DNA from: Bacteroidia bacterium
GTDB lineage: Bacteria; Bacteroidota; Bacteroidia; 2-12-FULL-35-15
NCBI GenBank assembly: GCA_045805205.1
Contig: JBJMLR010000011.1
Location: 467,803-531,802, forward strand
DNA length: 64,000 nucleotides
Direction: 5' to 3'
Each line of letters opens with the position of its first letter. The stretch's first letter is position 1. Below are positions 1-19,901 of this stretch, piece after piece. The notes beneath the pieces are model-generated. The model was given only the letters and a program-made list of their open reading frames with translations. It was not told the DNA's origin and did no database searches. A program made the position numbers and the translations under genes.

Positions 1-287
1 TTCCTGAAAACGTCACTTCATTTTATAAGCCTGTAATTGAATGGCTTGATCAGTTTTCGGGGTCGCCTACAAAAAAGCTCACATTTGAAGTGAAGCTGGA
101 ATATTTTAACACTGCGTCGTCGAAAATTATCCTGGATATCCTGATGAAGCTCGAAGAGATCCACCAGGTTGGACTTAGCGCAGTGGGCGTAAGCTGGTTC
201 TACGATAAGCGGGACGATGACATGCTTGAAGCCGGCGAAGAATATAAAGATCTCGTTGAATTGCCATTTGAATTAATCGGATTTTAA
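1..287 (+). CDS. DUF1987 (SiaC-like) domain protein, 3' fragment; the reading frame is open to the window edge
   Basis: The frame from nt 3 has no stop and reads ...KLTFEVKLEYFNTASSKIILDILMKLEEIHQVGLSAVGVSWFYDKRDDDMLEAGEEYKDLVELPFELIGF. This parallels the C-terminus of the next gene (ITVNIRLDYFNTTSSKCILDLLF...DLEEAGVNYSEIVKLPFSLIAYS). Confidence 0.55.
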   Translation, partial: PENVTSFYKPVIEWLDQFSGSPTKKLTFEVKLEYFNTASSKIILDILMKLEEIHQVGLSAVGVSWFYDKRDDDMLEAGEEYKDLVELPFELIGF

Positions 288-291
288 AAAT

Positions 292-1389
292 ATGAAATCG
301 AACCTACTATATGAATTGTCAACCGTTTATTCCTATTTCCTGAGGATAAATGAGATCGAATCTGTCGACCTGAGATACCTTGGGTTCTTTTACAAAGATT
401 ATGAAAAGCAGGGGAAGCTCGGAAAGCTGCTGAACTTCAGACGGCCGGGTTCGCAAGAAGCCAATGCGGAGCTGATGGTATCGGAGTGGAGGAATGTATC
501 AAAAGAAGAGTTCAGCTTTTGTCTTTCGCGTCTTTCGAAATATCTGAGCCATAAAGAAAAGGTCAGCTTTTTTCTCGTGCTGTTTGATTCATGTCACTAC
601 AACAGCTGGGTTGTAAAAGAACGGCTGGAATTTGTTCAGCAGATCGCCGAGAAATTATCGATCGACCTGGCATGGTTGCCACGGATCAAAAAACTGTCGA
701 CGCTTCAAAAGGACGTGCCGGATGCAGATGTAACAGATGGCAAGATCCTGTTCGTAAAGGAAAGTGAATTCTACCCCTGGAGAGATGAGCGGAACTCAAA
801 TGAAAAGGAAGCTACACAGACGCTGTTCACTTATATCTATTTCCAGGAGTCGATGCTTGCGTTTGTAAAGCCGCTTAACACGGCAAAAATGAATGGCTTC
901 GTTATCGAACCGGGAAAGCTTTATCCAATGACGGAGGGCGACGTGCTCTCCTGCAATGATAAGGTCATCTCATTCAATGGTGTTTTCAGGCACTACTTCA
1001 GTTCGGAGCAATTCCGGCCTTTGGTTATCGAAGCTACTGAAACAACTCCTTTTGTTCAATTCGACGGTTCGGAGAATAAGCTCGAGATCAGCGGCTGCTG
1101 TGTTCCGGAAAATGGAATGGAATTTTACGCGCGTCTCTACAAGTGGCTCGACAGCTATCTTATAACCAGGCCGAGGAAGATCACGGTGAACATTCGTCTC
1201 GACTATTTCAACACGACTTCCTCAAAGTGCATTCTGGATCTTCTTTTCCGGTTGCAACGATATAAAACTGACGAAGTGGACCTCCGGATCAACTGGTTTT
1301 TCCAGGATGGTGACGGCGACCTCGAAGAAGCGGGAGTTAATTACTCTGAAATTGTAAAGCTGCCTTTTTCACTGATCGCATATAGCTGA
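292..1389 (+). CDS. Protein with an N-terminal domain of unknown function and a C-terminal DUF1987 (SiaC-like partner-switch) domain
   Basis: 365-aa ORF starting 4 bp after the upstream paralog. Residues about 230-365 carry the DUF1987-like LDYFNTTSS...DLEEAG...LPF pattern, from reading the translation. Confidence 0.6.
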   Translation: MKSNLLYELSTVYSYFLRINEIESVDLRYLGFFYKDYEKQGKLGKLLNFRRPGSQEANAELMVSEWRNVSKEEFSFCLSRLSKYLSHKEKVSFFLVLFDSCHYNSWVVKERLEFVQQIAEKLSIDLAWLPRIKKLSTLQKDVPDADVTDGKILFVKESEFYPWRDERNSNEKEATQTLFTYIYFQESMLAFVKPLNTAKMNGFVIEPGKLYPMTEGDVLSCNDKVISFNGVFRHYFSSEQFRPLVIEATETTPFVQFDGSENKLEISGCCVPENGMEFYARLYKWLDSYLITRPRKITVNIRLDYFNTTSSKCILDLLFRLQRYKTDEVDLRINWFFQDGDGDLEEAGVNYSEIVKLPFSLIAYS

Positions 1390-1418
1390 ATAAACAACCC
1401 CTATAACTTACAAACGCT

Positions 1419-4400
1419 ATGAGTGAGGAAATTTTGAAAGCTTTAATGCAGCTGTTTGCGATCATCGCAAAACAGAATGACGGAAGTTCAGCCGGACAAA
1501 GGGAATTTATTGACCTTTTTTTACGGGCTCAGCTGAACGCTGCGAAGTGCGAAGAATATTTGAACCTGTATGATCAATTCCTGCATGGAAGCGATCAGGC
1601 AAGTCCGGAAAAAGAATCCGAGCGGAAGCTTACTTCGATGAAAGATTCCGTGAGAACGCTTTCGATCTGTAAAAAGATAAACAAAACCCTTACCCAAAAG
1701 CAAAAGGTCGTTGTACTGATCAGGCTATACGAATTTATTTGTGTCGCGTCTGGTCATTCGGAGCAGGGCTTCCAGATCATTTCGACAGTGTCTGAGGTAT
1801 TCCGGATCGAACCGGGAGACCGAGCGCTTATTGAATATCTTATTTTCGATAAGCACAGCGCGGAAGCGGATCTCGCCGAAAGCATGCTTATTGCGGAGAA
1901 GGAAGATCAGGACCGATCCGGCAAATTTATCCAGGCCGACGGTCTGGACGGTCGTATTTCGATCATTCGTATCGGTGCAGTGGGCCTTTATTTTTTCAAA
2001 TACAACGGCAATTCGGATATTTTCCTCAACGGATTCAGCGCGAGGAACAATATAATTTATTTGCTGCCACAGGGAGCGACATTGCGCTTGCCAAGAGGAG
2101 CGGTCTATTATGCTGATATTGTTTCCCGTTTCATGGACGAGGGGGTTAAGGAGAAATTTCATTTTACTGCCAGCGACGTTTCTTTTCGTTTTAAAACAGG
2201 TGACCCGGCGCTGAGAAACATCTCTATCGAAGAAGAAGGAGGTAAGCTGATCGGGATCATGGGTGGAAGCGGTGCAGGGAAAACAACCTTGCTGAATGTG
2301 CTGTCGGGAATAGAAACTCCTTCCGGTGGGACCGTTCGTGTCAATGGTATGGATCTTCATGCTAACCGGGCGCAGATGGATGGAGCGATAGGATATATTT
2401 CACAGGACGATCTGCTCTTTGAAGATCTTACTGTTTATCAAAATCTTTTTTATAACGCTGAACTATGTCACGGCGATCAGAAAAGCAGGATCATCGTTAA
2501 CAAAACGCTGTCCACGTTGGCAGGACTTGGTCTCCAGGAAGCAAAGGATATTAAAGTAGGCTCGCCGCTTAATAAGATGATCAGCGGCGGACAACGAAAG
2601 CGGCTCAATATTTCTCTGGAGCTGATCCGGGAACCGCCTATTCTTTTTGTGGATGAGCCGACCTCCGGGTTATCATCCAGGGATTCTGAGAATGTAATGG
2701 ACCTGCTGAAGGAATTATCACTCCGGGGGAAACTGATATTTGTTGTGATCCACCAGCCCTCATCCGACATTTATAAAATGTTCGACAAGGTCATCATCCT
2801 CGATAAAGGAGGATACCAGATCTATTATGGTAACCCGATCGAGGCGGTTATGTATTTCAAGGAAATGACAAACCAGCTGAACAGTGATATCGGCGAATGT
2901 GAGTCATGCGGAAATGTGAACCCCGAAACTATTTTTAATATTATCGAATCGAAAGAAGTAGATGAATACGGTAATTCGACCGCAAACAGAAAAATATCAC
3001 CTGAACAATGGTCAGGATACTATCAGAAAAGGCTGCCTGAAAATCATACAGCGAATGTAAAAACGACTGAAAAAAGCAAATCGTCTTTTTCCCGTCCTGC
3101 AAAGTTTCGCCAATTTAAGATCTTTTTAAAGCGCGATCTCGTTTCCAAGATCAGCAATCTGCAATATATCGCTATCAATCTATTGGAAGCTCCTTTGCTG
3201 GCGATGATCCTTGCCGGATTCATACGTTATTACAGCGGGAGCGAATCTGAATACGTTTTCCGCGAAAACGAAAATATTCCCGCTTATATATTTATCAGCG
3301 TGATCGTCATGCTGTTTTTTGGATTAACGGTTAGTGCGGAAGAGATCTTCAAAGATCAAAAGATCCTGAAGCGGGAGCAATTTCTGAATCTCAGCAAATT
3401 CAGTTACCTGTGCTCTAAGATCTTTTTGTTATTCAGCATTTCAGCCATCCAGTCGCTGTTATTTGCACTTGTCGGAAACTGGATAATCGGGATCCACGGA
3501 ATGTTCCTGGATTATTTCCTTGTATTGTTTTCTGTTTCAGCTTTTGCAAACGTGATCGGTCTGAATATTTCCTCGGCGTTTAATTCAGCCGTTACAATTT
3601 ATATTCTTATTCCATTGTTGATCATCCCGCAGATGATCCTCGGAGGAGCGATGATCAGTTATGATAAGATCAACAGATACCTCGGAGGCGGGGAAAAAGT
3701 GCCGGTTCTTGCAGAGTTTATGATCTCCAGATGGGGCTATGAAGCGCTGATGGTGGACCAGTTCGTATATAACAAATATGAAAAGGAATTCTATCCGATC
3801 GATAAAAAGATCAGCGAGGCGAATTACATTCTTGCATATTATATCCCTGAGCTTCGAAAGATCATCTCCGAAAGCAAATCCGCATTGGAGGAAAATAAGG
3901 CTGGCAAGTCATCCGCAGTTTCTGAAAACCTGGAGACACTCAACGCAGAGTTGAAGAAATTTCCGGGAGAATGTTCGGCGGTGGGATTAAATTTATCCGG
4001 AACACTTTTGAAAAATCCTGACTACCTCGTGAAAGCGGGGAAAGCGCTGGATCTATTGAACGATGAGCAAAGCGATGTTTTTAACTATTGGGACCGGAAG
4101 AACGAGGAGCTGCTTAAGAATTTTAACCGTGCAAACGGACAGGAGAAAGTTACCCGCATCAGGGATGATTATTCAAATGATTACCTGAAGGATATATTGT
4201 GCCGGACATTTGCAAAGAAGAAAGTACTTCGTGACAATGGAGTATTGGTGCAAGTCATCGATCCGATATTCAGATCTGTTGACGGGTCTGCCTTTATATC
4301 GGTCCATGAACCGCTTTTTATACCTGAAAAGAAGCTTTTCGGAAAAACGATCGGTGTTCTTGCTTTTAATGTGCTTGTGATCTGGGTATTCTCGCTGGTT

Positions 4401-4487
4401 GGCTTTGTGGCACTGTATTTCGGCTGGTTAAAAAAGATGCTGAGCTTCAATCCGGGAAAGCTGTTCCGTAGAAAAGCTCAGTTATAA
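1419..4487 (+). CDS. ABC transporter, fused ATPase-permease (ABC-2/ABCG-like), with an N-terminal TerB-like helical domain and an extra middle domain
   Basis: Walker A GGSGAGKTTLLNVLSG, ABC signature LSGGQRKRLNISLEL and Walker B ILFVDEPTSGLSS are present. The C-terminal about 480 aa is hydrophobic with multiple TM helices. The N-terminal 130 aa are helical with two D/E-G repeats reminiscent of TerB/DjlA-N. Confidence 0.8.
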   Translation: MSEEILKALMQLFAIIAKQNDGSSAGQREFIDLFLRAQLNAAKCEEYLNLYDQFLHGSDQASPEKESERKLTSMKDSVRTLSICKKINKTLTQKQKVVVLIRLYEFICVASGHSEQGFQIISTVSEVFRIEPGDRALIEYLIFDKHSAEADLAESMLIAEKEDQDRSGKFIQADGLDGRISIIRIGAVGLYFFKYNGNSDIFLNGFSARNNIIYLLPQGATLRLPRGAVYYADIVSRFMDEGVKEKFHFTASDVSFRFKTGDPALRNISIEEEGGKLIGIMGGSGAGKTTLLNVLSGIETPSGGTVRVNGMDLHANRAQMDGAIGYISQDDLLFEDLTVYQNLFYNAELCHGDQKSRIIVNKTLSTLAGLGLQEAKDIKVGSPLNKMISGGQRKRLNISLELIREPPILFVDEPTSGLSSRDSENVMDLLKELSLRGKLIFVVIHQPSSDIYKMFDKVIILDKGGYQIYYGNPIEAVMYFKEMTNQLNSDIGECESCGNVNPETIFNIIESKEVDEYGNSTANRKISPEQWSGYYQKRLPENHTANVKTTEKSKSSFSRPAKFRQFKIFLKRDLVSKISNLQYIAINLLEAPLLAMILAGFIRYYSGSESEYVFRENENIPAYIFISVIVMLFFGLTVSAEEIFKDQKILKREQFLNLSKFSYLCSKIFLLFSISAIQSLLFALVGNWIIGIHGMFLDYFLVLFSVSAFANVIGLNISSAFNSAVTIYILIPLLIIPQMILGGAMISYDKINRYLGGGEKVPVLAEFMISRWGYEALMVDQFVYNKYEKEFYPIDKKISEANYILAYYIPELRKIISESKSALEENKAGKSSAVSENLETLNAELKKFPGECSAVGLNLSGTLLKNPDYLVKAGKALDLLNDEQSDVFNYWDRKNEELLKNFNRANGQEKVTRIRDDYSNDYLKDILCRTFAKKKVLRDNGVLVQVIDPIFRSVDGSAFISVHEPLFIPEKKLFGKTIGVLAFNVLVIWVFSLVGFVALYFGWLKKMLSFNPGKLFRRKAQL

Positions 4488-4782
4488 TACGTAAGTAAAC
4501 CAGTTTTTTATCCGATTGTATCCGGGGTGTAACGAAGGTACTTTTGTATCGCAAACAAATAGGGAGAATTAGTTTGTTTAGTTAGTGTTAGAGTTAGAGT
4601 AGCGGGGGCTCCGGTGCATATTGCCGGGGCTCTCGCTTTTTCCGGAAATACAGCGTCAGCACATTTATAGGCCTGTCCGGAAAAACTCAGCGATACTACG
4701 TATTTAAACACGAGTTTCTCTGTATTGCCGAGCCCTCTGGCCGGGTTATACATTTGTTTCGTTAAATAAAGGACCATCAGAC

Positions 4783-7700
4783 ATGAACACTTTTTTATAT
4801 ATCATTCATAAGTTAACGCAGCAGCGGCGAGCGGGATCGCTTTTCATAAGAATCTTTTTCCTCGCGTTTCTGCTTGTTCAGCACGGAGAATCTAAGGCAC
4901 AGTGTACAGCCGAAATTGGAAATTATTCTCCACTCATCGGATGCGAAATACTTACGGTTCAGTTTCATGATTCCACGTCCGGCCCGGAGCTTTCAAGAAC
5001 CTGGGATTTTGGTGACGGATCAGCTACTTCCAGCTCTTCAGGTCCGCTGCATAATTTCTCGGCGGGATTTCTCGGCGATACGTCATATGTCATAACGCTT
5101 AGTACTGTTTGTATCAGCGGCCCTGCCAGCACCGCTTATGACACAGTGAAAGTGTATAAAAAACCAAAGGTCAATTTTGCTTCGAATAAATTCACTCTTT
5201 GTGCGCTTACGGATTCTGCATGTTTTACCAATCTTTCAACGTCCGGTCCGGGTTACACTTATCTGTGGAACTTCGGGGATTTCACAACGAGCAGCGCGTA
5301 TCAGCCATGTCACATCTATAGCACCGGTGGTGTTTACCCGGTTCAGCTCACCGTCACAAATTCTCACGGCTGCGCCAATTCCGTGACTTATTCAAGTTAT
5401 ATTACGGTGATCCCGGCACCAACCCTTGATTTCAATCTTAGCTCATTTTTGGGTTGCTCGCCAATGGGGGTCAGCTTTTCGAATATTACAGATACAGTCG
5501 CCACGTCGTTCACTTCATGGCAATGGAACTTCGGCGACGGATCTCCGGTTATCAATGCATTTAATCCTCCGTCCCACACATTCCTGCTGCCGGGAACTTA
5601 TTTTATCACGATGAGTGCTACTAATTCACTGGGCTGCTCGAACAGTACAACAAAAGCAATTGTTGTCCGGACCACGCCTACTTCAACGTTCACTGCAATT
5701 TCGCCGGTTTGCGCCGGAAGCAATTCTTTACTGACCTATACGGGAAATGCGGGTGCTGGCGCTTTATATGCCTGGAACTTTGCAGGAGGGGTTGCAAGTC
5801 CGGGCTCGGGTGCCGGACCGCATAACGTATCGTGGAACAGCGCAGGAACAATGAATGTGCAGCTGACCGTTACCGATAGTGGCTGCACATCCAGCTTTTC
5901 GCTGCCGGTAACCGTAAATCCGCTGCCGGTAGTTACGCTGAATGTTTTTCCGAATGATACCATTTGCCAGGGACAAACAGTAACGTTCACAGCGAGTCCG
6001 TCAACTCTGGTGAACTATCAATTTTATGTGAATTCGGTGATGGTGCAGGATTCTTCCAGCAGCTCATTCACTTCGTCGTCACTTTCTGACGGAGATTCAA
6101 TATATGTTACGGGTTCAAATGCTTTCAATTGTGCAAGCTTAGGAAGCAATGCCGTTGTGATGAAAGTAAATCCGCTGCCGTCGGTTTCGCTTAGCAGCAG
6201 CGGTCTTTCGGCTTGCGCCGGTGACAGTCTTGTGTTTACCGCATCGCCTTCCGGCTACGATAGTTATTCTTTTTTCCAGGGATTTTTAGTGCTTCAGAAT
6301 TCAGCATCGTCTGTTTATTCTACTACTGGATGGGTGAACGGCAATTCGATCTACGTTACTGCAACCGAGAATGGCTGCACCGGACCGCCAAGCAATATTC
6401 TGACTCCGCTGGTTACCCAGCCGCTGCCGACTCCCCAGGTAAATTGTGGAACCTCAACCGATTCTACTATCCAGTTTACATGGCTGCCGGTCTCCGGCGC
6501 CAGTGGCTACCTTGTGAGTGTTAACGGCGGACCGTATGTGTCGCCGAGTTCGGGTGTTCTCGGAACAACTCAGTTTGTCGGTGGCCTCACTACAGGCATG
6601 AGCGCAACGATACAGGTGATCGCGCTGGGTCCCGCACCTTGCGGAAACAGCGACACTTCAGCTGTTCACACCTGCTTTGCGATGAACTGTACCGGCATTT
6701 CTTTTTCCATCAATCCATATCAAACCATTTGTAATGGGGATGCTGTCACACTCGATCTTTCGGGCTTTAGCATAGCAAGTCCATTCGCTTCCTGGAATGG
6801 AGGCGCTTCAACTCCTTATAGCGATTTTACTTTTACGCCGCTGTCGGATGTTACCATTCCTGTAGTCGTGAGCAATCCGGCGCAACCGGGATGTCCGTCT
6901 GCAAGCAACTATTTCGTGATCACCGTTAATCCGCTTCCGGCCGTCGGTATTACCGTAAGTCCTGCAGCGGATAGTATTTGTCAGGGGACGCCGGTAACGT
7001 TCACTGCTTCACCGGCAGGCTATACCGACTATTCATTTTATAATGGGGCCACTCTTATGCAAAGCTCAAATAATCCGAATTTTACTGTACCGGATGTTGC
7101 GGGGAACTATTATATAAGTGTGCAGTCGACCTACCTCGGATGCCAGTATTCAACACCGGCGCTTCCCCTGACAATCCTTCCTGCACCTTTGGTAGCGTTG
7201 ACCTCAGCGCCCGGCGGCGGAACTGTTTGTTACGGTGATACCGTTTTATTCACAGCATTTCCTCCCGGTTATACAACGTACTCTTTTTATAACGGGTCCA
7301 CGCTGCTGCAGAGCTCGGCTTCGAATGTGATGAGCTACGGCGGAATGTTCGTTGGAAGCGGTAATAATATTTCCGTGATCGCTGTCAATTCCGATGGCTG
7401 TAACAGCACATCCAGCAACGTGATCAATTTCACTATTACGCCGCCGCCATCTATTTCGCTTGCCTGTTCTGACCTGGATCTCCAGATCTGTGAAGGTGAT
7501 CCGGTAACATTTACCGCTTCTCCTTCGGGAATGCTTTTATATGAATTTTTTAACGGTACAACGTTACTTCAGAGCTCGGCTTCGCCTTCCTTTGTGACAA
7601 GTTCTCTTCTTGCAGGCAATACAATTACGGTAGTCGGCACAAATGCAACGGGTTGCAAAACCATGATGAGCAATGCATTCTCACTGATGGTGAAGCCAAG

Positions 7701-8442
7701 ACCGGTAGCATATATATCCGCTTCGGACACGACATTATGTGCCGGAACCGTTGCTACGCTTACCGCAAATCAATCGCCGGTTGTTGCCGGTACAACTTAT
7801 ATCTGGAGCACCGGCGCTACTTCTTTAACGACAACAGTCGTTCCGCCGGTGAATACCAGTTATGTGCTTTATTCCAGTCTGAACGGATGCCAGGGAATTC
7901 CCGACACGCTTACAGTATTGGTGGACAATGCTCCGCTGCCGGTGACTACAGCAAGCGGAAGTACAACGCTTTGCATCGGCGACAGCGCCATGCTTTCAGG
8001 GTCCGGCGGATTTACCATGATCTGGACGCCATCGTCTGGATTGAATGATCCTACGATTCCGGATCCGAAAGCGGCACCAACCGTTAGCACAACTTATACG
8101 CTTACCACCAGCAACCTCTATTGCACTTCTTCCGCATCGGTAACTGTTAATGTGGATCTGTGTCTTTCGGATATTACCGGGCCAATCCCAACGGGGATCA
8201 CTCCGAATGGAGATGGGACCAATGACTTTTTTGTGATCCCGGATGTCGGCTACTTCAAAAAGAATTCACTGACAATATATAACCGGTGGGGAAGCGTAAT
8301 TTTTAAAGCTGCACCTTATGCTAATGACTGGAATGGCAGATCCTTAAACGGACAGGATCTTCCGGACGCGATCTACTATTATGTGCTTGATCTGGGAAAT
8401 GACACCGATCCGCATGCAGGTTATGTTGTAATTCAAAGATAA
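4783..8442 (+). CDS. Large PKD/Ig-repeat surface protein with a T9SS type B C-terminal sorting domain (gliding-motility-associated C-terminal domain)
   Basis: The C-terminus ITPNGDGTNDFFVIPDVGYF...LTIYNRWGSVIFKA...DWNGRSLNGQDLPDAIYYYVLDL matches the CHU_C / type B CTD consensus. The body has repeated about 85-aa PKD-like units (VTFTASPSGY..SFYNG). A signal peptide is present. Confidence 0.8.
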   Translation: MNTFLYIIHKLTQQRRAGSLFIRIFFLAFLLVQHGESKAQCTAEIGNYSPLIGCEILTVQFHDSTSGPELSRTWDFGDGSATSSSSGPLHNFSAGFLGDTSYVITLSTVCISGPASTAYDTVKVYKKPKVNFASNKFTLCALTDSACFTNLSTSGPGYTYLWNFGDFTTSSAYQPCHIYSTGGVYPVQLTVTNSHGCANSVTYSSYITVIPAPTLDFNLSSFLGCSPMGVSFSNITDTVATSFTSWQWNFGDGSPVINAFNPPSHTFLLPGTYFITMSATNSLGCSNSTTKAIVVRTTPTSTFTAISPVCAGSNSLLTYTGNAGAGALYAWNFAGGVASPGSGAGPHNVSWNSAGTMNVQLTVTDSGCTSSFSLPVTVNPLPVVTLNVFPNDTICQGQTVTFTASPSTLVNYQFYVNSVMVQDSSSSSFTSSSLSDGDSIYVTGSNAFNCASLGSNAVVMKVNPLPSVSLSSSGLSACAGDSLVFTASPSGYDSYSFFQGFLVLQNSASSVYSTTGWVNGNSIYVTATENGCTGPPSNILTPLVTQPLPTPQVNCGTSTDSTIQFTWLPVSGASGYLVSVNGGPYVSPSSGVLGTTQFVGGLTTGMSATIQVIALGPAPCGNSDTSAVHTCFAMNCTGISFSINPYQTICNGDAVTLDLSGFSIASPFASWNGGASTPYSDFTFTPLSDVTIPVVVSNPAQPGCPSASNYFVITVNPLPAVGITVSPAADSICQGTPVTFTASPAGYTDYSFYNGATLMQSSNNPNFTVPDVAGNYYISVQSTYLGCQYSTPALPLTILPAPLVALTSAPGGGTVCYGDTVLFTAFPPGYTTYSFYNGSTLLQSSASNVMSYGGMFVGSGNNISVIAVNSDGCNSTSSNVINFTITPPPSISLACSDLDLQICEGDPVTFTASPSGMLLYEFFNGTTLLQSSASPSFVTSSLLAGNTITVVGTNATGCKTMMSNAFSLMVKPRPVAYISASDTTLCAGTVATLTANQSPVVAGTTYIWSTGATSLTTTVVPPVNTSYVLYSSLNGCQGIPDTLTVLVDNAPLPVTTASGSTTLCIGDSAMLSGSGGFTMIWTPSSGLNDPTIPDPKAAPTVSTTYTLTTSNLYCTSSASVTVNVDLCLSDITGPIPTGITPNGDGTNDFFVIPDVGYFKKNSLTIYNRWGSVIFKAAPYANDWNGRSLNGQDLPDAIYYYVLDLGNDTDPHAGYVVIQR

Positions 8443-8450
8443 AAACACAG

Positions 8451-9386
8451 ATGAAAATCACGAAGATAATTACCGTACTTGGTTTGCTGCTCTTTCCGGC
8501 AGTCAGGATCTCCGCTCAGCAGGATCCGATGTATACCATGTATATGTTTGATAAGATGCTGATCAACCCGGGTTATACCGGCAGCTCCAACTGGGCGGTC
8601 GGCACATTGAAATACCGCGAGCAATTTGTCGGATTCGACGGTCGCCCTGTGACAGGCACTTTTAATTTCCATGCTCCTGTCCCGAAAAAGCATATCGGGC
8701 TCGGCTTTAAAGTGATCTCCGATAAAGCTGCTGTGATGAGCAATTTAAACGCGTCATTTTATTATGCCTATCATTTGAATTTCGCCGGCGGTAAGCTATC
8801 GCTGGGGCTGGAAGCGGGAGTTTATGACCGACGCATGGATTTTGCAAAATTGATCCTCTCTACTCCGGGGGATCATTCTGTTCCGATCGAAGCTGTCAGC
8901 TCTACGGTTCCCGATGCATCGCTCGGTTTGTATTATCAGAAAAAGCAATTTTATCTGGGCCTTTCGGATTGTCATCTGCTGAAGAGAAATTTCAACTATC
9001 ATACGTTGAATGAATCCGAATCGCACTTATACAACCACTATTATCTCCTTGGAGGAACTGTTTTAGATCTTTCCGATAAGATTGCATTCGAACCCAGCTT
9101 CCTTGTGAAGTATCAGCCTGCCGCACCGGTTCAGCTGGATGTGAACGGACTCCTGAGCTTTTATGACCGCATAGCCGTGGGTGTTCATTATCGCACCGGA
9201 GATGCGGCTGCCGCCATGATCAAGATCAACATCCTTGAAAATTTAAGGGTGGCATACAGCTATGATATGACCATTTCCGGCTTGTCCGGGTATTCACACG
9301 GTGCGCATGAGATCATCATCTCCTACGGCATCCGGATCCCGCCGCCACCGGCCGAAAAGGAAGTTCACCCAAGATATTATTACTAA
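8451..9386 (+). CDS. PorP/SprF family type IX secretion system membrane protein
   Basis: After the signal peptide comes QQDPMYTMYMFDKMLINPGYTGS, the hallmark N-terminal motif of PorP/SprF. It starts 8 bp after the type B CTD gene, which is the canonical pairing. Confidence 0.85.
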   Translation: MKITKIITVLGLLLFPAVRISAQQDPMYTMYMFDKMLINPGYTGSSNWAVGTLKYREQFVGFDGRPVTGTFNFHAPVPKKHIGLGFKVISDKAAVMSNLNASFYYAYHLNFAGGKLSLGLEAGVYDRRMDFAKLILSTPGDHSVPIEAVSSTVPDASLGLYYQKKQFYLGLSDCHLLKRNFNYHTLNESESHLYNHYYLLGGTVLDLSDKIAFEPSFLVKYQPAAPVQLDVNGLLSFYDRIAVGVHYRTGDAAAAMIKINILENLRVAYSYDMTISGLSGYSHGAHEIIISYGIRIPPPPAEKEVHPRYYY

Positions 9387-9407
9387 ACTTTTTTATGACC
9401 GCTACTC

Positions 9408-12086
9408 ATGAAATTTTTTTTCACCAAAAGAACCACGATTTTTTTTCTCATCGGCTTTTTCACAAGCACCACCACATCGGCGCAGAAAAACCTCGAAAAG
9501 GGAGATAAGCTTTTTGATATGAACCAGTTCACGGAAGCGATCCGCTACTATGATCTGGAGGTAAAAGCGAGGAACAGCAAAACGCTGGATCAGGCAATGC
9601 TCAAGCTCGCAAACTGTTACCGGATCACCGGTGAGTTCGAAAAGGCAGAAGCAACGTACAAAACATTGCTGAAAAAGAAAAAGAAAGATCCCAAAGCGAT
9701 CTTGAATTATGCGATCTCGCTGAAAAGCAGCGCAAAATACGCTGAGGCTGCCGCACAATTCAAGGAGTATCTTAAGGCAAATCCCCTGGATCCGATGGGT
9801 GAGATGTATTTGCAGTCATGCGATCTCGCACAGGTATGGCTGGATGAAACCATCGGTAAGGAAGTAAGAAATGTTGAGAAGCTGAACAGTGAGCTGGGAG
9901 ATTTTGCACCTGTACTCACCTCGCAGGGGCAGCTGGTTTATACTTCATCAAAACCCGGAGGCACACAGGCACTGATCAGCTTTGACGGGGGAAATGAGAT
10001 CCATCGTCTAGACCTATACAGCCTGGATGTAAATGATATTGACGAGAAGCCGAAAACCGACATCCGGAACATGAAGGAGTTTAACTCTCCGCTTCATGAA
10101 GGGCCTGCAACGTTTTCAAAAGATGGAACGGAACTGTATTTCACGCGTACGATCAATGGGAAAAAAGACAAGCATACAAACAAGGTGTTGAATACGCTCC
10201 AGGTATTTTATTGTAAAAAGGACTCCACGGGACATTGGTCAAAACCGCAGAGCGCATTTTCCTTCAATAGTAAAGACTATTCGGTAGGGCAGCCCAGCTT
10301 GTCACCCGATGGAAAAACAATTTACTATATGAGTGATATGCCTGGTGGAAAAGGCGGAACCGATATTTATTACAGCACCCGGGAAAAAGATAAATCCTGG
10401 TCAGCGCCAAAGAAGATCGAAGGAGATGTGAATACGTTCGGACATGAATTGTTTCCGTACATATCCGATGACGGAGTATTGTATTTTTCATCAGATGCGC
10501 ATCCCGGAATGGGGCAGCTCGATATTTTTTCCTCTGAATATGATAACGGGAAGTGGGTCAATGTAACTAACCTGAAGCCTCCGATCAATTCGATCGCAAA
10601 TGATTTTGGCCTGGCACTGGACGGAAAAAACAAAAGAGGTTTTTTCAGCTCCGACCGTTTCAACGGAAAAGGTGCGGAAGATATTTACAGCTTCTCTGAT
10701 CCAATTCCTCTTAAGCTATCGATCGACTCCGATACCATCCGGTTCGCTGATAAAAGTATTTATGATGGGATCAAATACAAGCTGGTGAATGAAGCAGACA
10801 AAAGCGAACAGGTGCTCGAGCCGTTCAATGGCGTGTATTCGGTAAAGCTCGCTGAACTGCAGAAATACACTTTAGTCGCAAAGAAAAACGGTTTTCCATA
10901 CAATAAGATCTCATTGAGCTTATCGAGAGATACACTAGGAAATTATCTTGAGGCAAGAGTTAAGCCGGGTCTTCATTCCATCCAGGTAGATGGCCATTTG
11001 CGCTCTTCGCTTATTCCGGATAGTCTCCGCATAAAATACGGTGAAATGCCCGTACAGGATGTCGCTGTGTCGCTGATCGATTCTTCAACCACCGTTGAAA
11101 AAGAGCTGGCAGCAAAGAGAACGGGCGCTTTTGGATTTGAAGAAGTGTTGAATGCAAACGAGTCATACACGGTGATCGCGAAAATAGAAGTACCGAAAGA
11201 TCCGCCGGATCCGATTGTTAAATGTAAAGGAATCGTGATGTATAACGGTGCGCCGCTTGCAAATGCTTCCGTACAGCTCCTTGAAGATGGAAAGTTAACT
11301 GAGCGTTTTCAAACGGGTGAAAAAGGGAATTTTGATTTTGAACTCGATTTGAATAAGAACTATACGATCGCCGGAAATAAGCTTGGCTTCGATACTGCAT
11401 CGGTGTCATTCATTACGGATGCGAATGATGCAAAGAACGGAATGTTCCGGACGATCCGGCTGGACTCATTGGGAAGCATCCGGCTGAACGGAACTGTACG
11501 TAATGCGATTGCAGGATTGGGAAATGTTCAGCTGACGATCCGGGAAGGCAGTAAGGTCGTAGCGGAGCTAAGGTCGGCTTCCGATGGGAAGTTCAACGGT
11601 TCCCTGCTTCCAGGGCATGAGTATACAATTACAGCAACAGCAGGTGGTTATTTTCAGAAAGAAGTTGCGCTTTCAACAAAAACCCTGAATAAAGGTGAAA
11701 CACTAACGACAGATATTCTTCTCGATTCAATTAAAGTGAATGCCGTGGTTGAGCTCCGGAACCTGTATTACGACTATGACAAACCCGATGTTCAGTTCAA
11801 ATCACTGCCTGCATTGGATAAGCTTGTGGAGTTTATGAGGACCAATCCGACCGTGAAGATCGAGTTGGCAGCAAATACTGATTCCCGCGGAAACCCGGAT
11901 TATAACCTCCGGCTGTCGCAAGCCCGCGCGCAATATGCAAAGGATTATCTGACACTTGAAGACATTTCGCCGGATCGGGTAGTACCGGTAGGTTATGGTA
12001 AAACAAAACCGCTCATTGCAAATGCAAAAAGCGAGCAGGAGCATCAGATCAACCGGCGCACTGAAATTCGAATCCTTCAAAACTAA
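9408..12086 (+). CDS. OmpA-family protein with N-terminal TPR repeats and a TolB-like beta-propeller region
   Basis: The C-terminal OmpA_C motif NTDSRGNPDYNLRLSQARA...VGYGKTKP...NRRTEIRIL is present. The middle part has PD40-like SLSPDGKTIYYMSD. The N-terminus has a signal peptide and TPR-like helices. Confidence 0.8.
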   Translation: MKFFFTKRTTIFFLIGFFTSTTTSAQKNLEKGDKLFDMNQFTEAIRYYDLEVKARNSKTLDQAMLKLANCYRITGEFEKAEATYKTLLKKKKKDPKAILNYAISLKSSAKYAEAAAQFKEYLKANPLDPMGEMYLQSCDLAQVWLDETIGKEVRNVEKLNSELGDFAPVLTSQGQLVYTSSKPGGTQALISFDGGNEIHRLDLYSLDVNDIDEKPKTDIRNMKEFNSPLHEGPATFSKDGTELYFTRTINGKKDKHTNKVLNTLQVFYCKKDSTGHWSKPQSAFSFNSKDYSVGQPSLSPDGKTIYYMSDMPGGKGGTDIYYSTREKDKSWSAPKKIEGDVNTFGHELFPYISDDGVLYFSSDAHPGMGQLDIFSSEYDNGKWVNVTNLKPPINSIANDFGLALDGKNKRGFFSSDRFNGKGAEDIYSFSDPIPLKLSIDSDTIRFADKSIYDGIKYKLVNEADKSEQVLEPFNGVYSVKLAELQKYTLVAKKNGFPYNKISLSLSRDTLGNYLEARVKPGLHSIQVDGHLRSSLIPDSLRIKYGEMPVQDVAVSLIDSSTTVEKELAAKRTGAFGFEEVLNANESYTVIAKIEVPKDPPDPIVKCKGIVMYNGAPLANASVQLLEDGKLTERFQTGEKGNFDFELDLNKNYTIAGNKLGFDTASVSFITDANDAKNGMFRTIRLDSLGSIRLNGTVRNAIAGLGNVQLTIREGSKVVAELRSASDGKFNGSLLPGHEYTITATAGGYFQKEVALSTKTLNKGETLTTDILLDSIKVNAVVELRNLYYDYDKPDVQFKSLPALDKLVEFMRTNPTVKIELAANTDSRGNPDYNLRLSQARAQYAKDYLTLEDISPDRVVPVGYGKTKPLIANAKSEQEHQINRRTEIRILQN

Positions 12087-12658: not shown

Positions 12659-13660
12659 ATGTCCCGGTACGACAATAAACAGAAAGACTCCCAGAAAACC
12701 TGGCTCTTCCTCGGAGGAGCATTGCTGCTGCTATTGTCGCTTGCGATCATTAAGCTCCTCATGTCCGACGATGAGGAAAAGCCGCTGATGTCTGCTGTAC
12801 AAGCCACCACTCCTGCCAAAACCACCAACCTGAATGATGCTTCCGGCGCAATGGAATACATCTACAATGCTCCCGAGTCGGAAAATGATATCCGCTATGG
12901 TTATCAATGGGAAATTTTAAGAACGGCACTCGAGCGGACCATTCCTTCTTATGGTCCTTACAGCATGAAGAAATCGGCATTTATGCCGGAGAAGCGCCAG
13001 CTTTTCGAGTTGGAAAATAATACACAGGCACTCACCGTCATGTATCTCAGCACCACGCGTGATATGGAAAAAAAGCTGCTGCCGGTGCGGATCCCCGTCG
13101 ACAAAAACCTGGGTGGCTATTGCATCATGCTGATCCGGAAAGAGGACCAGGATCGGTTTTCGAAGATCCGGACACTGGAACAGCTGGAAAAAACCCCGAT
13201 CGGGTTGGGAAACGGCTGGATCGATGTCGATATCCTTCGTTTCAATCATTTCAATATTGTTACCGGTTCCGATTATGAAGGCTTATTCAGGATGCTCGCG
13301 AATAAACGCTTCGATGCTTTTTCGAGATCCGCCGTCGAGATCCTTGATGAATACTCGAGCAGGCAAAAACAGCTCCCGGATCTGAAGATCGAAGACAGCT
13401 TATTATTGTATTATCCGCTCCCGATGTATTTTTGGTTCGCTAAAACGGAACAGGGGAAAAGGCTCGCGGAAAGAGCACGGGAAGGCATGGAAGGAATGCT
13501 GCGAGACGGAACCTATGACAGCATTTTCAACTATTACCAGGGTTACAAAACCGAAAAGCTTCATCTGAAAAAGCGAAGGCTGCTGAAGGTGGAAAATCCA
13601 TTTCTTAGTGAAGAAACGCCATTTGACGATAAACGCCTTTGGTATGATCCGATCAATTAA
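12659..13660 (+). CDS. Membrane-anchored periplasmic solute-binding-like (PBPb-like) protein
   Basis: N-terminal TM anchor. The rest resembles family-3 substrate-binding folds (GLGNGWIDVDIL...NKRFDAFSRSAVEI). The call rests on weak similarity by eye. Confidence 0.45.
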   Translation: MSRYDNKQKDSQKTWLFLGGALLLLLSLAIIKLLMSDDEEKPLMSAVQATTPAKTTNLNDASGAMEYIYNAPESENDIRYGYQWEILRTALERTIPSYGPYSMKKSAFMPEKRQLFELENNTQALTVMYLSTTRDMEKKLLPVRIPVDKNLGGYCIMLIRKEDQDRFSKIRTLEQLEKTPIGLGNGWIDVDILRFNHFNIVTGSDYEGLFRMLANKRFDAFSRSAVEILDEYSSRQKQLPDLKIEDSLLLYYPLPMYFWFAKTEQGKRLAERAREGMEGMLRDGTYDSIFNYYQGYKTEKLHLKKRRLLKVENPFLSEETPFDDKRLWYDPIN

Positions 13661-13669
13661 TTCCGCTGT

Positions 13670-15463
13670 ATGAAAAGAGTAAACACATCGATCAGTACCA
13701 TCACCATTATTTCATCGCTTGCGTTGACATCGTTAGTGTTTTGCTTTTTCGGATGGATGTATTACGGCCGGCAAAAGACACAGCATTTTACGGAGCTTAA
13801 TTCCAGCCTGGACCGGACAAGCCATCAGCTTTCGAAAGGACTCTCGATAGCGGTGTGGAATTTCAACGAAAACCAGGTGGAAGGAATTCTTGAAAGCGGA
13901 ATGCTCGACAAGGACATCGATGGGATCTCAATTGAATATAATGATCAGGACAAAACGATCATCTCGATACTCCGGGATGGCGGTGCGCAAACGAAAACCG
14001 TAAATAAGAAAATTTCTCCCCTCAAAGATGCGCTCGTTATTCAAAATGACATCAGGTACGACGACGATATAGTTGGAAAGCTTACGATCTATGGCACAAC
14101 CCGGTTTGTATACCGTAAGCTTGAAAAAGAACTTACGCTGATCGCACTATTTATTTTGCTGCTGATCGGGATCATGATGCTTGGGATTTACTGGATACTT
14201 TATCTTATTGTTATCAAGCCCGCCCAGGCGCTCGAAAAATTTTCACTCTCGATCACCGCCGAAAATCTAACCCATGCAGAGATCGATAGCAGTAAATATT
14301 ATCGTGAATTTGAGAACCTCGGCAATTCGCTTCAAAAAATGATCTCGTCGCTGAACCTGAGCTACAAAAATCTGGAGGAAAGTGAAAAGCGGTTTAAAGA
14401 TATTGCCAACCTGCTTCCGATGAGTGTCTTTGAACTTAATCTCGAAGGGCATTTCACATTTATGAATGACACCGGGTTCAGGCAATTTGATCTTACCCGG
14501 GAAGAGGTAGAAGGCGGGAAGCGTTTTTCAAGTACCATCCATCATGATTATCTGAAAACCGCTTTCGAAGCGAGGAATCTTCTTGCAGCTGACGCTAAGC
14601 GTACGTCGGTAGAATACAAGATCCTGCAAAAGAACGGAACCTACCTCACCATGCTTTTCAATGCCGCACCTCTTTTTAAAAATGGAGTATTGGCTGGTTT
14701 TATCGGCGCAGGTCTGGATGTAACCGAGCAGCGCGCAACCGAAGCAGCGATCAATGAATTGCTTCGTCTTGATTTTAAAAAGGAGCAGGAAGCGGAAAAG
14801 CAAAAAGCGCTTGCGCTGATCGAAGGACAGGAAAAGGAGAGATTGAGGATCTCCCGCGAAGTTCACGATGGAGTGGGACAAATGATGACGGCAATTAAAT
14901 TAGCCAGTGAAAGCATCGATCCTTCATCGATCCAGTCAAAACAAAACGCGGAAAAATTCGAATACACGAAAAAGCTTATTACAGAGGTCATTACCGAGTT
15001 GCGGCAGATTTCGAGGGACCTTTCTCCGACATTCTTATACGATTATGGTCTTTTTTCAGCGGTAAACCAGCTTGTAAATAACCTGTCGAGTTTCAGCGAT
15101 GTAACGATCAGGCTGAATTCGAATATTCAAAAAGAACGATTTACCCTGCAAGTGGAGATCACGTTATACCGGATCGTCCAGGAGGTATTGAACAATGCGA
15201 TGAAATATTCAGAGGCAAAGAATATCAAGATCAATCTTCTTCTTGATGCGGAGTTCCTGGAGCTGACGGTTGATGATGACGGCATGGGCTGTGATCTCCA
15301 GATCCTCCGGCAGTTGAGCCCTCCAAAGGGAAACGGCTTGAAAAATATAATTTCACGTGCTAATCTCATTGGCGCAAATGCTACAATCGATTCTGCACCG
15401 TTCCGGGGATTTCATATCAGTGTACAGGTGCCATTGGATCGGGAAGAAGAGCCGGAATTATAG
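13670..15463 (+). CDS. Sensor histidine kinase (HisKA_3 / NarL-partner type) with a PAS domain
   Basis: Two TM segments flank a periplasmic domain. A PAS-like region is present. The H-box EKERLRISREVHDGVGQMMTAIKL is HisKA_3 type. A C-terminal HATPase_c is present (NAMKYS...LELTVDDDGMG). Confidence 0.8.
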   Translation: MKRVNTSISTITIISSLALTSLVFCFFGWMYYGRQKTQHFTELNSSLDRTSHQLSKGLSIAVWNFNENQVEGILESGMLDKDIDGISIEYNDQDKTIISILRDGGAQTKTVNKKISPLKDALVIQNDIRYDDDIVGKLTIYGTTRFVYRKLEKELTLIALFILLLIGIMMLGIYWILYLIVIKPAQALEKFSLSITAENLTHAEIDSSKYYREFENLGNSLQKMISSLNLSYKNLEESEKRFKDIANLLPMSVFELNLEGHFTFMNDTGFRQFDLTREEVEGGKRFSSTIHHDYLKTAFEARNLLAADAKRTSVEYKILQKNGTYLTMLFNAAPLFKNGVLAGFIGAGLDVTEQRATEAAINELLRLDFKKEQEAEKQKALALIEGQEKERLRISREVHDGVGQMMTAIKLASESIDPSSIQSKQNAEKFEYTKKLITEVITELRQISRDLSPTFLYDYGLFSAVNQLVNNLSSFSDVTIRLNSNIQKERFTLQVEITLYRIVQEVLNNAMKYSEAKNIKINLLLDAEFLELTVDDDGMGCDLQILRQLSPPKGNGLKNIISRANLIGANATIDSAPFRGFHISVQVPLDREEEPEL

Positions 15464-18620: not shown

Positions 18621-19901
18621 TTAATCCTCATCACTGTTCTTCCCGAAATGAACAACAAAACCGATATAAGGAATTCCTACGAAATATTCATGCTCCCAAA
18701 GTGCAGGAGTATTAATGAAGCCGATATCGAAGCTGCCTTTTTCATTCAGGATCCTGGCACCATAGGAAATGAATGTTTCATAATGATATTCATCCCGGAA
18801 GCCGCGGCTGAACGGATCGCCTTTCACCGATACCATCCAGTTCTCAGAAACCAGCGCAAGCTTTTTTGAAACGCGGATCTGTCCGCTCAATTGAACCAGG
18901 GGCTGTGTGATCCAATCGGTTTGATGATTGCTGTTTTCAACTCCATAACAAACAGAAGCGGTCAGGTTCCGGTCGATGTTCCCAACCGTAAAAGAGCAGA
19001 ACCCAAGCCCGATCCCGAAGTTTGAACCGTTCACCAGCGGGAACAACGAGTTTCCGACCATCAATCCTCCGGCTACATATGCATAATTATTCACTGAAGT
19101 CGATACTTTCGGCCTCAGGTAAACTCCGAAAGGTCCGGCCAGGCCGCCGCCGATCGAAAAATGATCCGTGATGCCGTAATCAAATTCATTGCCCAGACCA
19201 TAATAATTATGGTAATATCCTTCTCCTTTTTTAACGGACATTGCACTCGGACTGAGCAGGTATAAAGTAGAAACCGGGTTGCGGAACCATACCTTTCCTA
19301 CCTTGTCAACCGTACCATCCAGCGGTTTGGTAGATTTCACTTTTCCATTGTCGATCTTCAGCACGCCGAGGTTCTGCGTCTGAACAATAAATCCATTTTC
19401 ATCTTTGCTCAGGATCTTGCCGGAGATGATCGTTCCGTCGCGCAGCGTGATCACCCAGTTTTCCGAGCCATATTCTTTTTCAAGCGTGGCGATGTTCTTA
19501 CGATCGATCGTTCGTTCCCCGATATTATCGTCGAGGAATATGACCTCCCGCGGACTTTCCTTTACAACAACTCCTTTCAGCTTTGTCCCGTCGGTGAGCG
19601 TCATCACATATCTTGTTTTGACCTCTTTACTCACGGTGGCTGCAGCTTTTATGCTTTCCGGTGTGTTCTGGAAATTTTCGGTCATGCCGTTGGAATACTT
19701 CACAGACTTGATCTCGCTTCGCTTTTCGGTATAAACAGGTCCGTCCGCCAGATCGGCTCGCTTGTATTTGATCTCATTCTGAGAGATCTCGATCACGCGT
19801 CCAACAATAACCGAATTGTCTTTACGGAAAATGCTGTCCTGGGCGAGAGAAGGTACTATTCCTGCAAACAGGAACAGCAAGGGAAGGAGTCTTTTCATCA
19901 T
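18621..19901 (-). CDS. Hypothetical secreted / outer-membrane-associated protein
   Basis: 426-aa ORF with a signal peptide (MMKRLLPLLFLFAGIVPSLAQ) and a Gly/aromatic-rich C-terminal half. Confidence 0.5.
   Translation of the reverse strand: MMKRLLPLLFLFAGIVPSLAQDSIFRKDNSVIVGRVIEISQNEIKYKRADLADGPVYTEKRSEIKSVKYSNGMTENFQNTPESIKAAATVSKEVKTRYVMTLTDGTKLKGVVVKESPREVIFLDDNIGERTIDRKNIATLEKEYGSENWVITLRDGTIISGKILSKDENGFIVQTQNLGVLKIDNGKVKSTKPLDGTVDKVGKVWFRNPVSTLYLLSPSAMSVKKGEGYYHNYYGLGNEFDYGITDHFSIGGGLAGPFGVYLRPKVSTSVNNYAYVAGGLMVGNSLFPLVNGSNFGIGLGFCSFTVGNIDRNLTASVCYGVENSNHQTDWITQPLVQLSGQIRVSKKLALVSENWMVSVKGDPFSRGFRDEYHYETFISYGARILNEKGSFDIGFINTPALWEHEYFVGIPYIGFVVHFGKNSDED

Follow-up and report, generated by a model that had tools for sequence, protein, structure and literature searches.

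The known bacterial partner switches mostly regulate sigma factors; control of cyclic di-GMP (c-di-GMP) cyclases has been recognized more recently. The closest described system to the one reported here is SiaABCD of Pseudomonas aeruginosa (PA0169-PA0172), in which mass spectrometry identified T68 of SiaC as the residue that SiaB phosphorylates and SiaA dephosphorylates (PMC7647112). In this study, we analyzed a stretch of 64,000 nucleotides from a Bacteroidia bacterium (GCA_045805205.1, contig JBJMLR010000011.1, positions 467,803 to 531,802 of the forward strand), hereafter the 64-kb window, which begins with two genes for SiaC-family (DUF1987) proteins followed by a gene for an ABCG-type ATP-binding cassette (ABC) transporter. 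Positions 1-4487 are the distal (right-hand) part of a conserved Bacteroidota operon that encodes a SiaABC-type Ser/Thr partner switch. We propose, as a reading that we consider rather probable, that the output of this switch is the adjacent ABCG-type exporter instead of a diguanylate cyclase, and that the phospho-state of the Thr68-equivalent of SiaC controls its binding to the N-terminal module of the transporter.

Like SiaABCD, the operon combines a SiaA-related PP2C phosphatase, SiaB-family kinase(s) and SiaC with a T68-equivalent, the presumed target being encoded beside SiaC (PMC7647112; PMC8457831). Unlike in SiaABCD, however, an ABCG-type exporter would take the place of the GGDEF cyclase SiaD as output; the PP2C, a soluble protein of ~330 amino acids (aa), matches the C-terminal half of SiaA only; the operon has two kinases as well as a pair of SiaC paralogues, of which one is fused to a target-like module; and the SiaC proteins, at 70-74 bits, do not reach the SiaC equivalog cutoff of 150. 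The locus also recalls Rv1747 of Mycobacterium tuberculosis, an ABC-2/ABCG-like exporter in which FHA-type domain(s) precede the nucleotide-binding domain (NBD) and the NBD precedes the transmembrane domain (TMD), and which is regulated by Ser/Thr phosphorylation via the same-operon kinase PknF (PMC3138270). Rv1747 has two canonical FHA domains, and its Hanks-type kinase phosphorylates the transporter's own linker, whereas the transporter described here has one divergent FHA-like domain, without the canonical phosphothreonine-binding residues and preceded by a TerB-like domain, and the phosphorylated species would, by analogy with SiaC, be a separate STAS-like protein served by a kinase of the SiaB (GHKL-like) type. 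In the STAS/anti-sigma-antagonist partner switches HsbR-HsbA-HsbD, BgrSTUWV and SypE-SypA, a kinase and a PP2C toggle a phosphorylatable STAS-like protein, which binds and regulates an effector that acts outside transcription, in the surface or biofilm lifestyle (PMC8457831; PMC10120452); these effectors are diguanylate cyclases or polysaccharide-locus proteins, compared to an ABC exporter here. Finally, the transporter shares its core fold and domain order with the eukaryotic ABCG half-transporters (ABCG2, ABCG1, ABCG5/8) but, unlike ABCG2, it carries a 255-aa bacterial regulatory N-terminus and an insert of ~195 aa where ABCG2 has a short extracellular loop 3. We found no description in the literature of a partner switch with an ABC transporter as adjacent output, nor of this TerB-ABC family.

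The SiaC proteins and their upstream kinases and phosphatase

Positions 1-4487 contain three consecutive open reading frames (ORFs) on the forward strand, the first being open at the window edge (NCBI protein records of the window genes, MFL5765045.1 and MFL5765046.1), with a gap of 29 nt between gene 2 and the ABC gene. The genes and the SiaC features are as follows.

3-287, + strand: gene 1, SiaC-family phosphoprotein, C-terminal 94 aa, 5' end cut by the window edge (PF09345)
111-113, + strand: T68-equivalent codon of gene 1 (T37 of the fragment, YFNT motif; from alignment)
292-1389, + strand: gene 2, 365-aa fusion of a helical region, an FHA-like domain and a SiaC domain (ORF)
1021-1383, + strand: SiaC domain of gene 2, aa 244-364 (PF09345; Foldseek to SiaC crystal structures)
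1213-1215, + strand: T68-equivalent codon of gene 2 (T308; from alignment)
1419-4487, + strand: ABC gene, 1022-aa ABCG-type (ABC-2) half-transporter with NBD then TMD (Pfam, TIGR00955, ABCG2 alignment)

Both SiaC domains match PF09345 (SiaC/DUF1987; Pfam), with E values of 2.3e-30 for the gene 1 fragment and 9.5e-35 for residues 246-364 of gene 2, corresponding to 105.1 and 119.3 bits for a gathering cutoff of 24.5, and they are 39% identical to each other. Gene 2 matches the P. aeruginosa SiaC chains 6K4F and 6KKO in sequence (E 1.5e-12), and the model of its SiaC domain has the STAS-like SiaC fold, superimposing on 6KKO, 7E6G and 6K4F with template modeling scores (TM) of 0.88-0.90, a root mean square deviation (rmsd) of 1.6 A and an E value of 7e-8 (Foldseek). 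The gene 1 fragment shares 83% and 77% identity with the 125-aa SiaC proteins of the orthologous loci L001 and L004, respectively, and full-length orthologues of gene 1 are 125 aa long. The threonine of the FNTxSSK segment (FNTTSSK in gene 2) aligns with T68 of P. aeruginosa SiaC (LLYLNTSSIK) and is invariant in the ABC-linked SiaC sequences examined (26/26). As the domain E values lie far below chance and the gene order is kept in relatives, the three-gene arrangement is not fortuitous.

An earlier note on this DNA had described two consecutive genes with C-terminal DUF1987 domains, the first cut by the edge, a 1022-aa ABC ATPase-permease 29 bp downstream, and a conserved threonine in the FNTxSSK segment. 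The hidden Markov model (HMM) searches gave the PF09345 E values reported above for the two domains, the downstream ORF carries ABC_tran and ABC2_membrane with its motifs intact, and the threonine proved to be the T68-equivalent. The note had further stated that the 64-kb window holds no kinase, phosphatase or cyclase. This is literally true, since our search of the window returned no PP2C, no SiaB, no homologue of the lipoprotein described below and no GGDEF cyclase, but the orthologous loci reveal an edge artefact: the kinase and the phosphatase are missing because the window edge cuts the operon.

Relatives of gene 2 at 63%, 51% and 40% identity lie on contigs that show one shared operon order, namely SpoIIE/PP2C (~331 aa), DUF6272 (190 aa), DUF6272 (183-185 aa), SiaC (125 aa), SiaC fusion (366-370 aa) and ABC (1015-1021 aa). 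This order is complete in L001, L004 and L006 and is seen from the first DUF6272 on in the P0002 contig; on the contig of the 63%-identity relative, the gene before the first DUF6272 is visible as a 40-aa tail only. The two DUF6272 proteins of L001 are SiaB-family kinases (120 and 138 bits against NF038262, SiaB_fam_kinase, with a cutoff of 85; NCBIfam). The L001-type PP2C matches the SiaA model below its equivalog cutoff, with an E value of 5e-44 over positions 359-657 (the C-terminal catalytic half), and the PP2C proteins of window-type loci are soluble, without the N-terminal membrane/HAMP half of SiaA. No GGDEF protein occurs in the gene tables of the orthologous loci, where the ABC transporter holds the output position, and no Pkinase-domain gene was found in these loci, the operon kinases being of the SiaB/DUF6272 type. 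By orthology, a soluble SiaA-like PP2C and two SiaB-family kinases would be encoded within ~2.7 kb to the left of the window edge. The leftward extension that the earlier note had pointed to, followed here in orthologous loci, leads to SiaA-like PP2C and SiaB-family kinase genes immediately upstream, and the module should thus be considered as a complete partner switch and not as an orphan SiaC pair.

Neither of the two short intergenic gaps within positions 1-4487 contains a terminator-like site, and none lies in the interval from the ABC stop codon to the following gene. Over positions 1-5000, the promoter/terminator scan gave counts not above those of shuffled sequence, which says little since the scan does not cover Bacteroidota promoters.

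The transporter and its N-terminal module

The third gene encodes a protein in which ABC_tran (PF00005) is found at residues 265-416 (101.6 bits) and ABC2_membrane (PF01061) at residues 564-779 (79.9 bits, E 2.4e-22; Pfam). Its best NCBIfam match is TIGR00955 of the ABCG/White subfamily (E 2.3e-80), at 271 bits and thus far below the 736-bit cutoff, and residues 277-784 align with residues 75-588 of ABCG2 (E 1e-39). The ATPase motifs are intact throughout, from Walker A and the Q-loop to the ISGGQ signature, Walker B (DEP) and the H-loop. Hydropathy indicates five helices within residues 584-742 and no hydrophobic segment between aa 743 and 979. The core features are listed below.

2184-2888, + strand: NBD (Pfam and motifs)
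2262-2285, + strand: Walker A (motif)
2580-2594, + strand: ABC signature (motif)
2640-2660, + strand: Walker B (motif)
2751-2762, + strand: H-loop (motif)
3108-3770, + strand: transmembrane helices 1-5 and re-entrant segment, aa 564-784 (PF01061, hydropathy, ABCG2 alignment)
3771-4355, + strand: hydrophilic insert of ~195 aa, aa 785-979, at the position of ABCG extracellular loop 3, predicted periplasmic (hydropathy, ABCG2 alignment)
4356-4484, + strand: last transmembrane helix, equivalent to helix 6 (aa 980-998, hydropathy 2.5), and K/R-rich tail

The insert should be periplasmic, since the ABCG topology puts residues 785-979 at extracellular loop 3, and it is kept in 15 orthologues.

The NBD is preceded by an extension of ~255 aa, and residues 1-255 of the transporter have at least 457 homologues. 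This extension comprises two domains.

1419-1847, + strand: TerB-like helical domain, aa 1-143 (seven helices in the AlphaFold2 [AF2] model; PF05099 at family level)
1875-2135, + strand: divergent FHA-like beta domain, aa 153-239 (Foldseek, one PDB profile match)

The AF2 model of this N-terminus, built from an 82-sequence alignment (pLDDT 85.8, pTM 0.81), consists of seven helices (residues 3-143) followed by a nine-strand beta domain (residues 155-230), the latter being the second domain of about 100 aa that the earlier note had placed before Walker A. The same note had called the N-terminus TerB-like. This assignment holds at the family level, as PF05099 matches 77 of the 82 sampled homologues of residues 1-255 (best E 1.9e-11), but it fails for the window's own copy, in which PF05099 gives no match at E<=1 (Pfam). 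The all-helical model of the domain is consistent with TerB.

Comparison of the beta domain with the PDB by Foldseek returned FHA domains at ranks 1-41 among the 50 matches listed, including those of Rad53, MEK1, KIF1A, CEP170, EssC (5fwh) and SAV0287. These are compact matches over ~80 columns, with a probability of ~1.0, an rmsd of 2.6-4 A and E values of ~1e-2, none being below 1e-3. At the sequence level, the profile of the beta domain gave a single match at E<=10 among PDB sequences, the FHA domain of MEK1 (E 0.029), and PF00498 (FHA) matched 0/82 family members at E<=0.1 (Pfam). The canonical phosphothreonine-binding residues of FHA domains (GR, SxxH and the Asn of SxNGT) are not conserved, a negative that is provisional given the weak alignment: the "GR" position 179 is variable in the family, with Arg in the window copy only; there is no conserved SxxH; and the Asn of SxNGT aligns with E199, which is Glu, Gln or Asp in the family. 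The invariant N204-G205 pair aligns with the second "NG" of FHA domains. We consider the second N-terminal domain as FHA-like in its modeled fold, and not as an established phosphopeptide binder. The candidate of a canonical FHA phospho-reader was downgraded, its signature residues not being conserved.

These data bear on an alternative polarity, in which the FHA-like domains of both the transporter and gene 2 would recognize the phosphothreonine of SiaC, making phospho-SiaC the binding form, as do FHA domains in Rv1747. Such a reader would accord with the FHA-like fold of both modules, with the FHA domain of MEK1 as the sole PDB profile match of the transporter's beta domain, with the presence of a predicted phosphothreonine protein encoded in the same operon, and with the Rv1747 precedent (PMC3138270). 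It is nevertheless unlikely in our view, as none of the 82 family members matches the Pfam FHA model, GR and SxxH are not recognizably conserved, and Glu199 stands at the place of the SxNGT Asn. Degenerate FHA-like domains such as that of EssC (5fwh) are not known to bind phosphopeptides, which also counts against this polarity. Moreover, the binding of SiaC to SiaD is abolished by phosphorylation (PMC8457831).

The preferred reading, in which SiaC contacts the transporter module, draws on the architecture of gene 2, which contains, upstream of its SiaC domain, the following regions.

292-711, + strand: N-terminal helical region, aa 1-140, paralogue of the transporter's TerB-like domain (hhalign, HMM, model)
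739-1002, + strand: FHA-like beta domain, aa ~150-237 (Foldseek; strands 177-227)

In a profile-profile comparison (hhalign), residues 71-236 of gene 2 match residues 78-239 of the transporter with a probability of 95.2% and an E value of 2.5e-8 over 160 columns, and an HMM of the gene 2 N-terminus matches the ABC N-termini of nine other loci (E 1e-11 to 6e-4). The homology is seen with profiles only: direct BLASTP between the two N-termini gave a collinear but insignificant match (E 0.94). The AF2 model of gene 2 (pLDDT 77.8, pTM 0.65) shows helices at residues 3-137, then a beta domain, then the SiaC domain, and its beta domain matches the FHA domains of PNKP, aprataxin, Bdellovibrio DgcB, MEK1 and Rad53 (Foldseek, probability 0.97-1.0, E 5e-3 to 1e-1). 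Profile comparison thus shows that the N-terminal 245 aa of gene 2 are, as judged from sequence, a paralogous copy of the TerB-like/FHA-like module of the transporter. The fusion is rare, with 12 homologues of gene 2 in 5.8 billion proteins and ~5 clusters among 1.84 billion representative proteins. Since gene 2 joins a SiaC domain to a copy of the regulatory module found in the neighboring transporter, we propose a contact between SiaC and this module; gene 2 may be read as a Rosetta-stone fusion marking this contact and provides the strongest sequence-level hint of it.

Linkage of SiaC and the transporter across genomes

Scanning one genome per species with the gene 2 alignment, we obtained 175 SiaC-like loci, 80 of which were kept, annotated with custom HMMs and subjected to clustering of neighboring genes. 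SiaC adjoins a TerB-ABC gene of ~1015-1023 aa, alike in its N-terminal, core and C-terminal regions, in 24 loci, a count that includes the window and some redundant contigs, and the pairing amounts to ~28 Bacteroidota loci altogether. It is found in four arrangements: (i) PP2C, two SiaB, SiaC, fusion and ABC, (ii) SiaC, lipoprotein, ABC and PP2C, (iii) PP2C divergent from SiaB-SiaC with a convergent ABC gene, and (iv) PP2C, SiaB, SiaC, (second SiaC), ABC and lipoprotein. The three genes of the window are syntenic in every relative with enough sequence. Thus neither of the two outcomes that the earlier note had named as refuting it, C-terminal domains outside DUF1987 and a lack of synteny in related genomes, was obtained. 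Conversely, all four long contigs picked by a homologue of the ABC N-terminus (4/4) carry PP2C, SiaB and SiaC immediately upstream of ABC, and they include the complete genome of the cultured Fulvivirga maritima (CP089980.1, 3.045-3.060 Mb). The conserved neighborhood and the recurrence of the pairing, in four arrangements and in every locus of this reverse test, support the suggestion of the earlier note that a partner-switch module was re-wired toward an exporter; the gating of the exporter by SiaC is what we infer from genome context, domain fusion and analogy with SiaABCD.

Another explanation would be that SiaC and the transporter are co-transcribed for one process, SiaC acting on an unlinked target and the module having another ligand. 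TerB-like domains occur in many unrelated contexts, which is in favor of this explanation. We consider it very unlikely, however, as the adjacency survives the four rearrangements and recurs in 4/4 reverse-test loci, and as a SiaC fusion to the exact module of the transporter is hard to explain without functional contact.

The reverse flow of information was also considered, in which the transporter would act as a sensor whose transport or ATPase cycle is relayed by the N-terminal module to SiaC and to the fusion protein, a flux sensing of the BceAB type, with another target such as the neighboring chemosensory or histidine-kinase genes. The module is adjoined by Che-type genes and a gene for a 242-aa HATPase_c protein in L001 and L004, and by CheR/CheB in L086-L088, and the soluble PP2C of window-type loci is without an obvious sensor domain, as this scheme would have it. 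In most other loci, however, the PP2C has its own sensor domains (HAMP/GAF/PAS, dCache or GldM-like), so the switch already has an input; the gene after SiaC in other lineages encodes a classical output enzyme; and no other conserved candidate target accompanies the switch as regularly as the ABC gene does. A sensory role of the transporter thus seems to us improbable compared to a role as output.

Indeed, the gene directly after SiaC in Leptospira (L042, L064) encodes a GAF-class III nucleotidyl (adenylate/guanylate) cyclase, the PP2C being there ~1780 aa long, and it encodes a histidine kinase in Blastocatellia, Opitutales and one Bacteroidia genome (L021, L023, L062). From these gene orders, the SiaABC cassette appears to have lineage-specific adjacent outputs. 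The authors of the SiaC-SiaD study proposed that DUF1987 proteins modulate adjacent proteins (PMC8457831), and the differing genes after SiaC (cyclase, histidine kinase, SiaD) fit this proposal.

A lipoprotein of ~280-305 aa, with a signal peptide, a lipobox cysteine and an IPSPLE motif, is encoded in 20 of the 24 loci and in 3/4 reverse-test loci.

L001:6238-7149 (- strand), L010:10399-11241, L086:10116-11054 and 17 other loci: lipoprotein gene, co-occurring with TerB-ABC

In the lineage of the window, as judged from orthologous loci, the lipoprotein gene would be divergent and upstream of PP2C, to the left of the window. An ORF of ~143 aa without Pfam match comes after the lipoprotein gene in loci where the latter follows ABC (L067, L079, L086:11077-11508, L088:11059-11490). 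In loci with the SiaC-lipoprotein-ABC-PP2C order, the SiaA-like PP2C is ~717 aa long (L010:14490-16643; also L011, L016 and L032), and in its N-terminus a match to the GldM N-terminal domain PF12081 (E 1e-14), along with a weak one to GldL_N, suggests that the L010-type PP2C is a sensor related to the type IX secretion system (T9SS)/gliding motor.

The loci show further features of their own. Window-type loci are flanked by divergent chemosensory genes for CheA-CheW, CheY and a NIT-domain methyl-accepting chemotaxis protein (L001:1-4968, L004:1-413), and Fulvivirga-type loci have CheR and CheB upstream of a HAMP/GAF/PAS-PP2C (L086:12-1396, L087, L088). In F. maritima, the TerB-ABC gene is called as two overlapping ORFs of 402 and 629 aa (L086:7001-10082), and it is also fragmented in L087 and L089; these split calls could reflect a frameshift, an assembly error or a genuine split. 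Four tandem SiaC genes are present at L039:9989-12165, and two complete PP2C-SiaB-SiaC triplets lie ~6 kb apart at L049:6269-16893.

Directly downstream of ABC, positions 4783-12086 of the window carry a T9SS cassette encoding a 1219-aa PKD/Ig_7/CHU_C cargo, PorP/SprF (8451-9386) and an 892-aa TPR-PD40-CarboxypepD_reg-OmpA protein. Synteny of the cassette is seen in L001 and L006, and L003 and L004 also have a large-cargo homologue after ABC; the other ABC-SiaC loci lack the cassette. Farther downstream, the window contains a PAS-HisKA_3 histidine kinase gene (13670-15463), an isoleucyl-tRNA-synthetase-like gene (20504-23938) and ORFs of 310-426 aa without Pfam match at E<=1e-5 (12659-13660, 18621-19901 and 23951-24883).

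Model of exporter control and its implications

We propose a model that builds on what was observed here: which domains the proteins contain, the conservation of the phospho-site, the synteny, and the paralogy of the two modules. The SiaB-family kinases and the PP2C would set the phospho-state of T37 (gene 1 fragment) and T308 (gene 2). The unphosphorylated SiaC domain would bind its target and the phosphorylated form would be released, as in SiaC-SiaD, the target being presumably the cytoplasmic TerB-like and divergent FHA-like module of the transporter. As this module lies directly before the NBD, it could control NBD dimerization and ATPase activity. Gene 2 may act as a tethered adaptor docking on the transporter by module-module pairing, or as a decoy. 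Binding and regulatory polarity, like the membrane topology and the substrate class, are elements that we infer.

With regard to the substrate, the presence of the periplasmic insert and of the lipoprotein suggests a role at the envelope: the probable substrate is a lipid or glycoconjugate of the envelope, which the transporter would either move or act on mechanically (mechanotransmission).

Several observations weigh against this model. The presence of the kinases and of the phosphatase in this genome rests on orthologues at 40-63% identity, and about half of the L010-type loci have no SiaB gene nearby. The two SiaC domains of the window reach 73.6 and 69.9 bits against the SiaC equivalog NF038265 for a cutoff of 150 (NCBIfam) and should therefore be considered as family members, not as SiaC orthologues. 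The E values of the FHA matches and the non-conserved phosphothreonine-binding residues, both detailed above, count on the same side. As for the substrate, the insert and the lipoprotein each gave chance-level matches only against Pfam, NCBIfam and PDB profiles.

The FHA-like domain, the fusion of gene 2 to a copy of the module, the insert at extracellular loop 3 and the lipoprotein partner go beyond the earlier note. We also advance, tentatively, a broader proposal, which we hold as possible rather than probable: a SiaABC-type switch would directly gate an ABCG-type envelope exporter via a TerB-like/pseudo-FHA receiver, as an undescribed and widespread export control of Bacteroidota, often under Che or GldM-like input, with a target-mimic fusion serving as decoy or tethered adaptor in the lineage of the window. 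With SiaC joined to a copy of the receiver module, the fusion protein indicates a specific contact surface that is testable, and the presence of the system in the cultured F. maritima opens it to experiment. If the model holds true, a bacterial ABC exporter gated post-translationally by a diffusible phospho-protein would constitute a new output class of partner switches. This would also give a role to a large uncharacterized family of Bacteroidota transporters, to its TerB-like and pseudo-FHA domains, and to its conserved lipoprotein.

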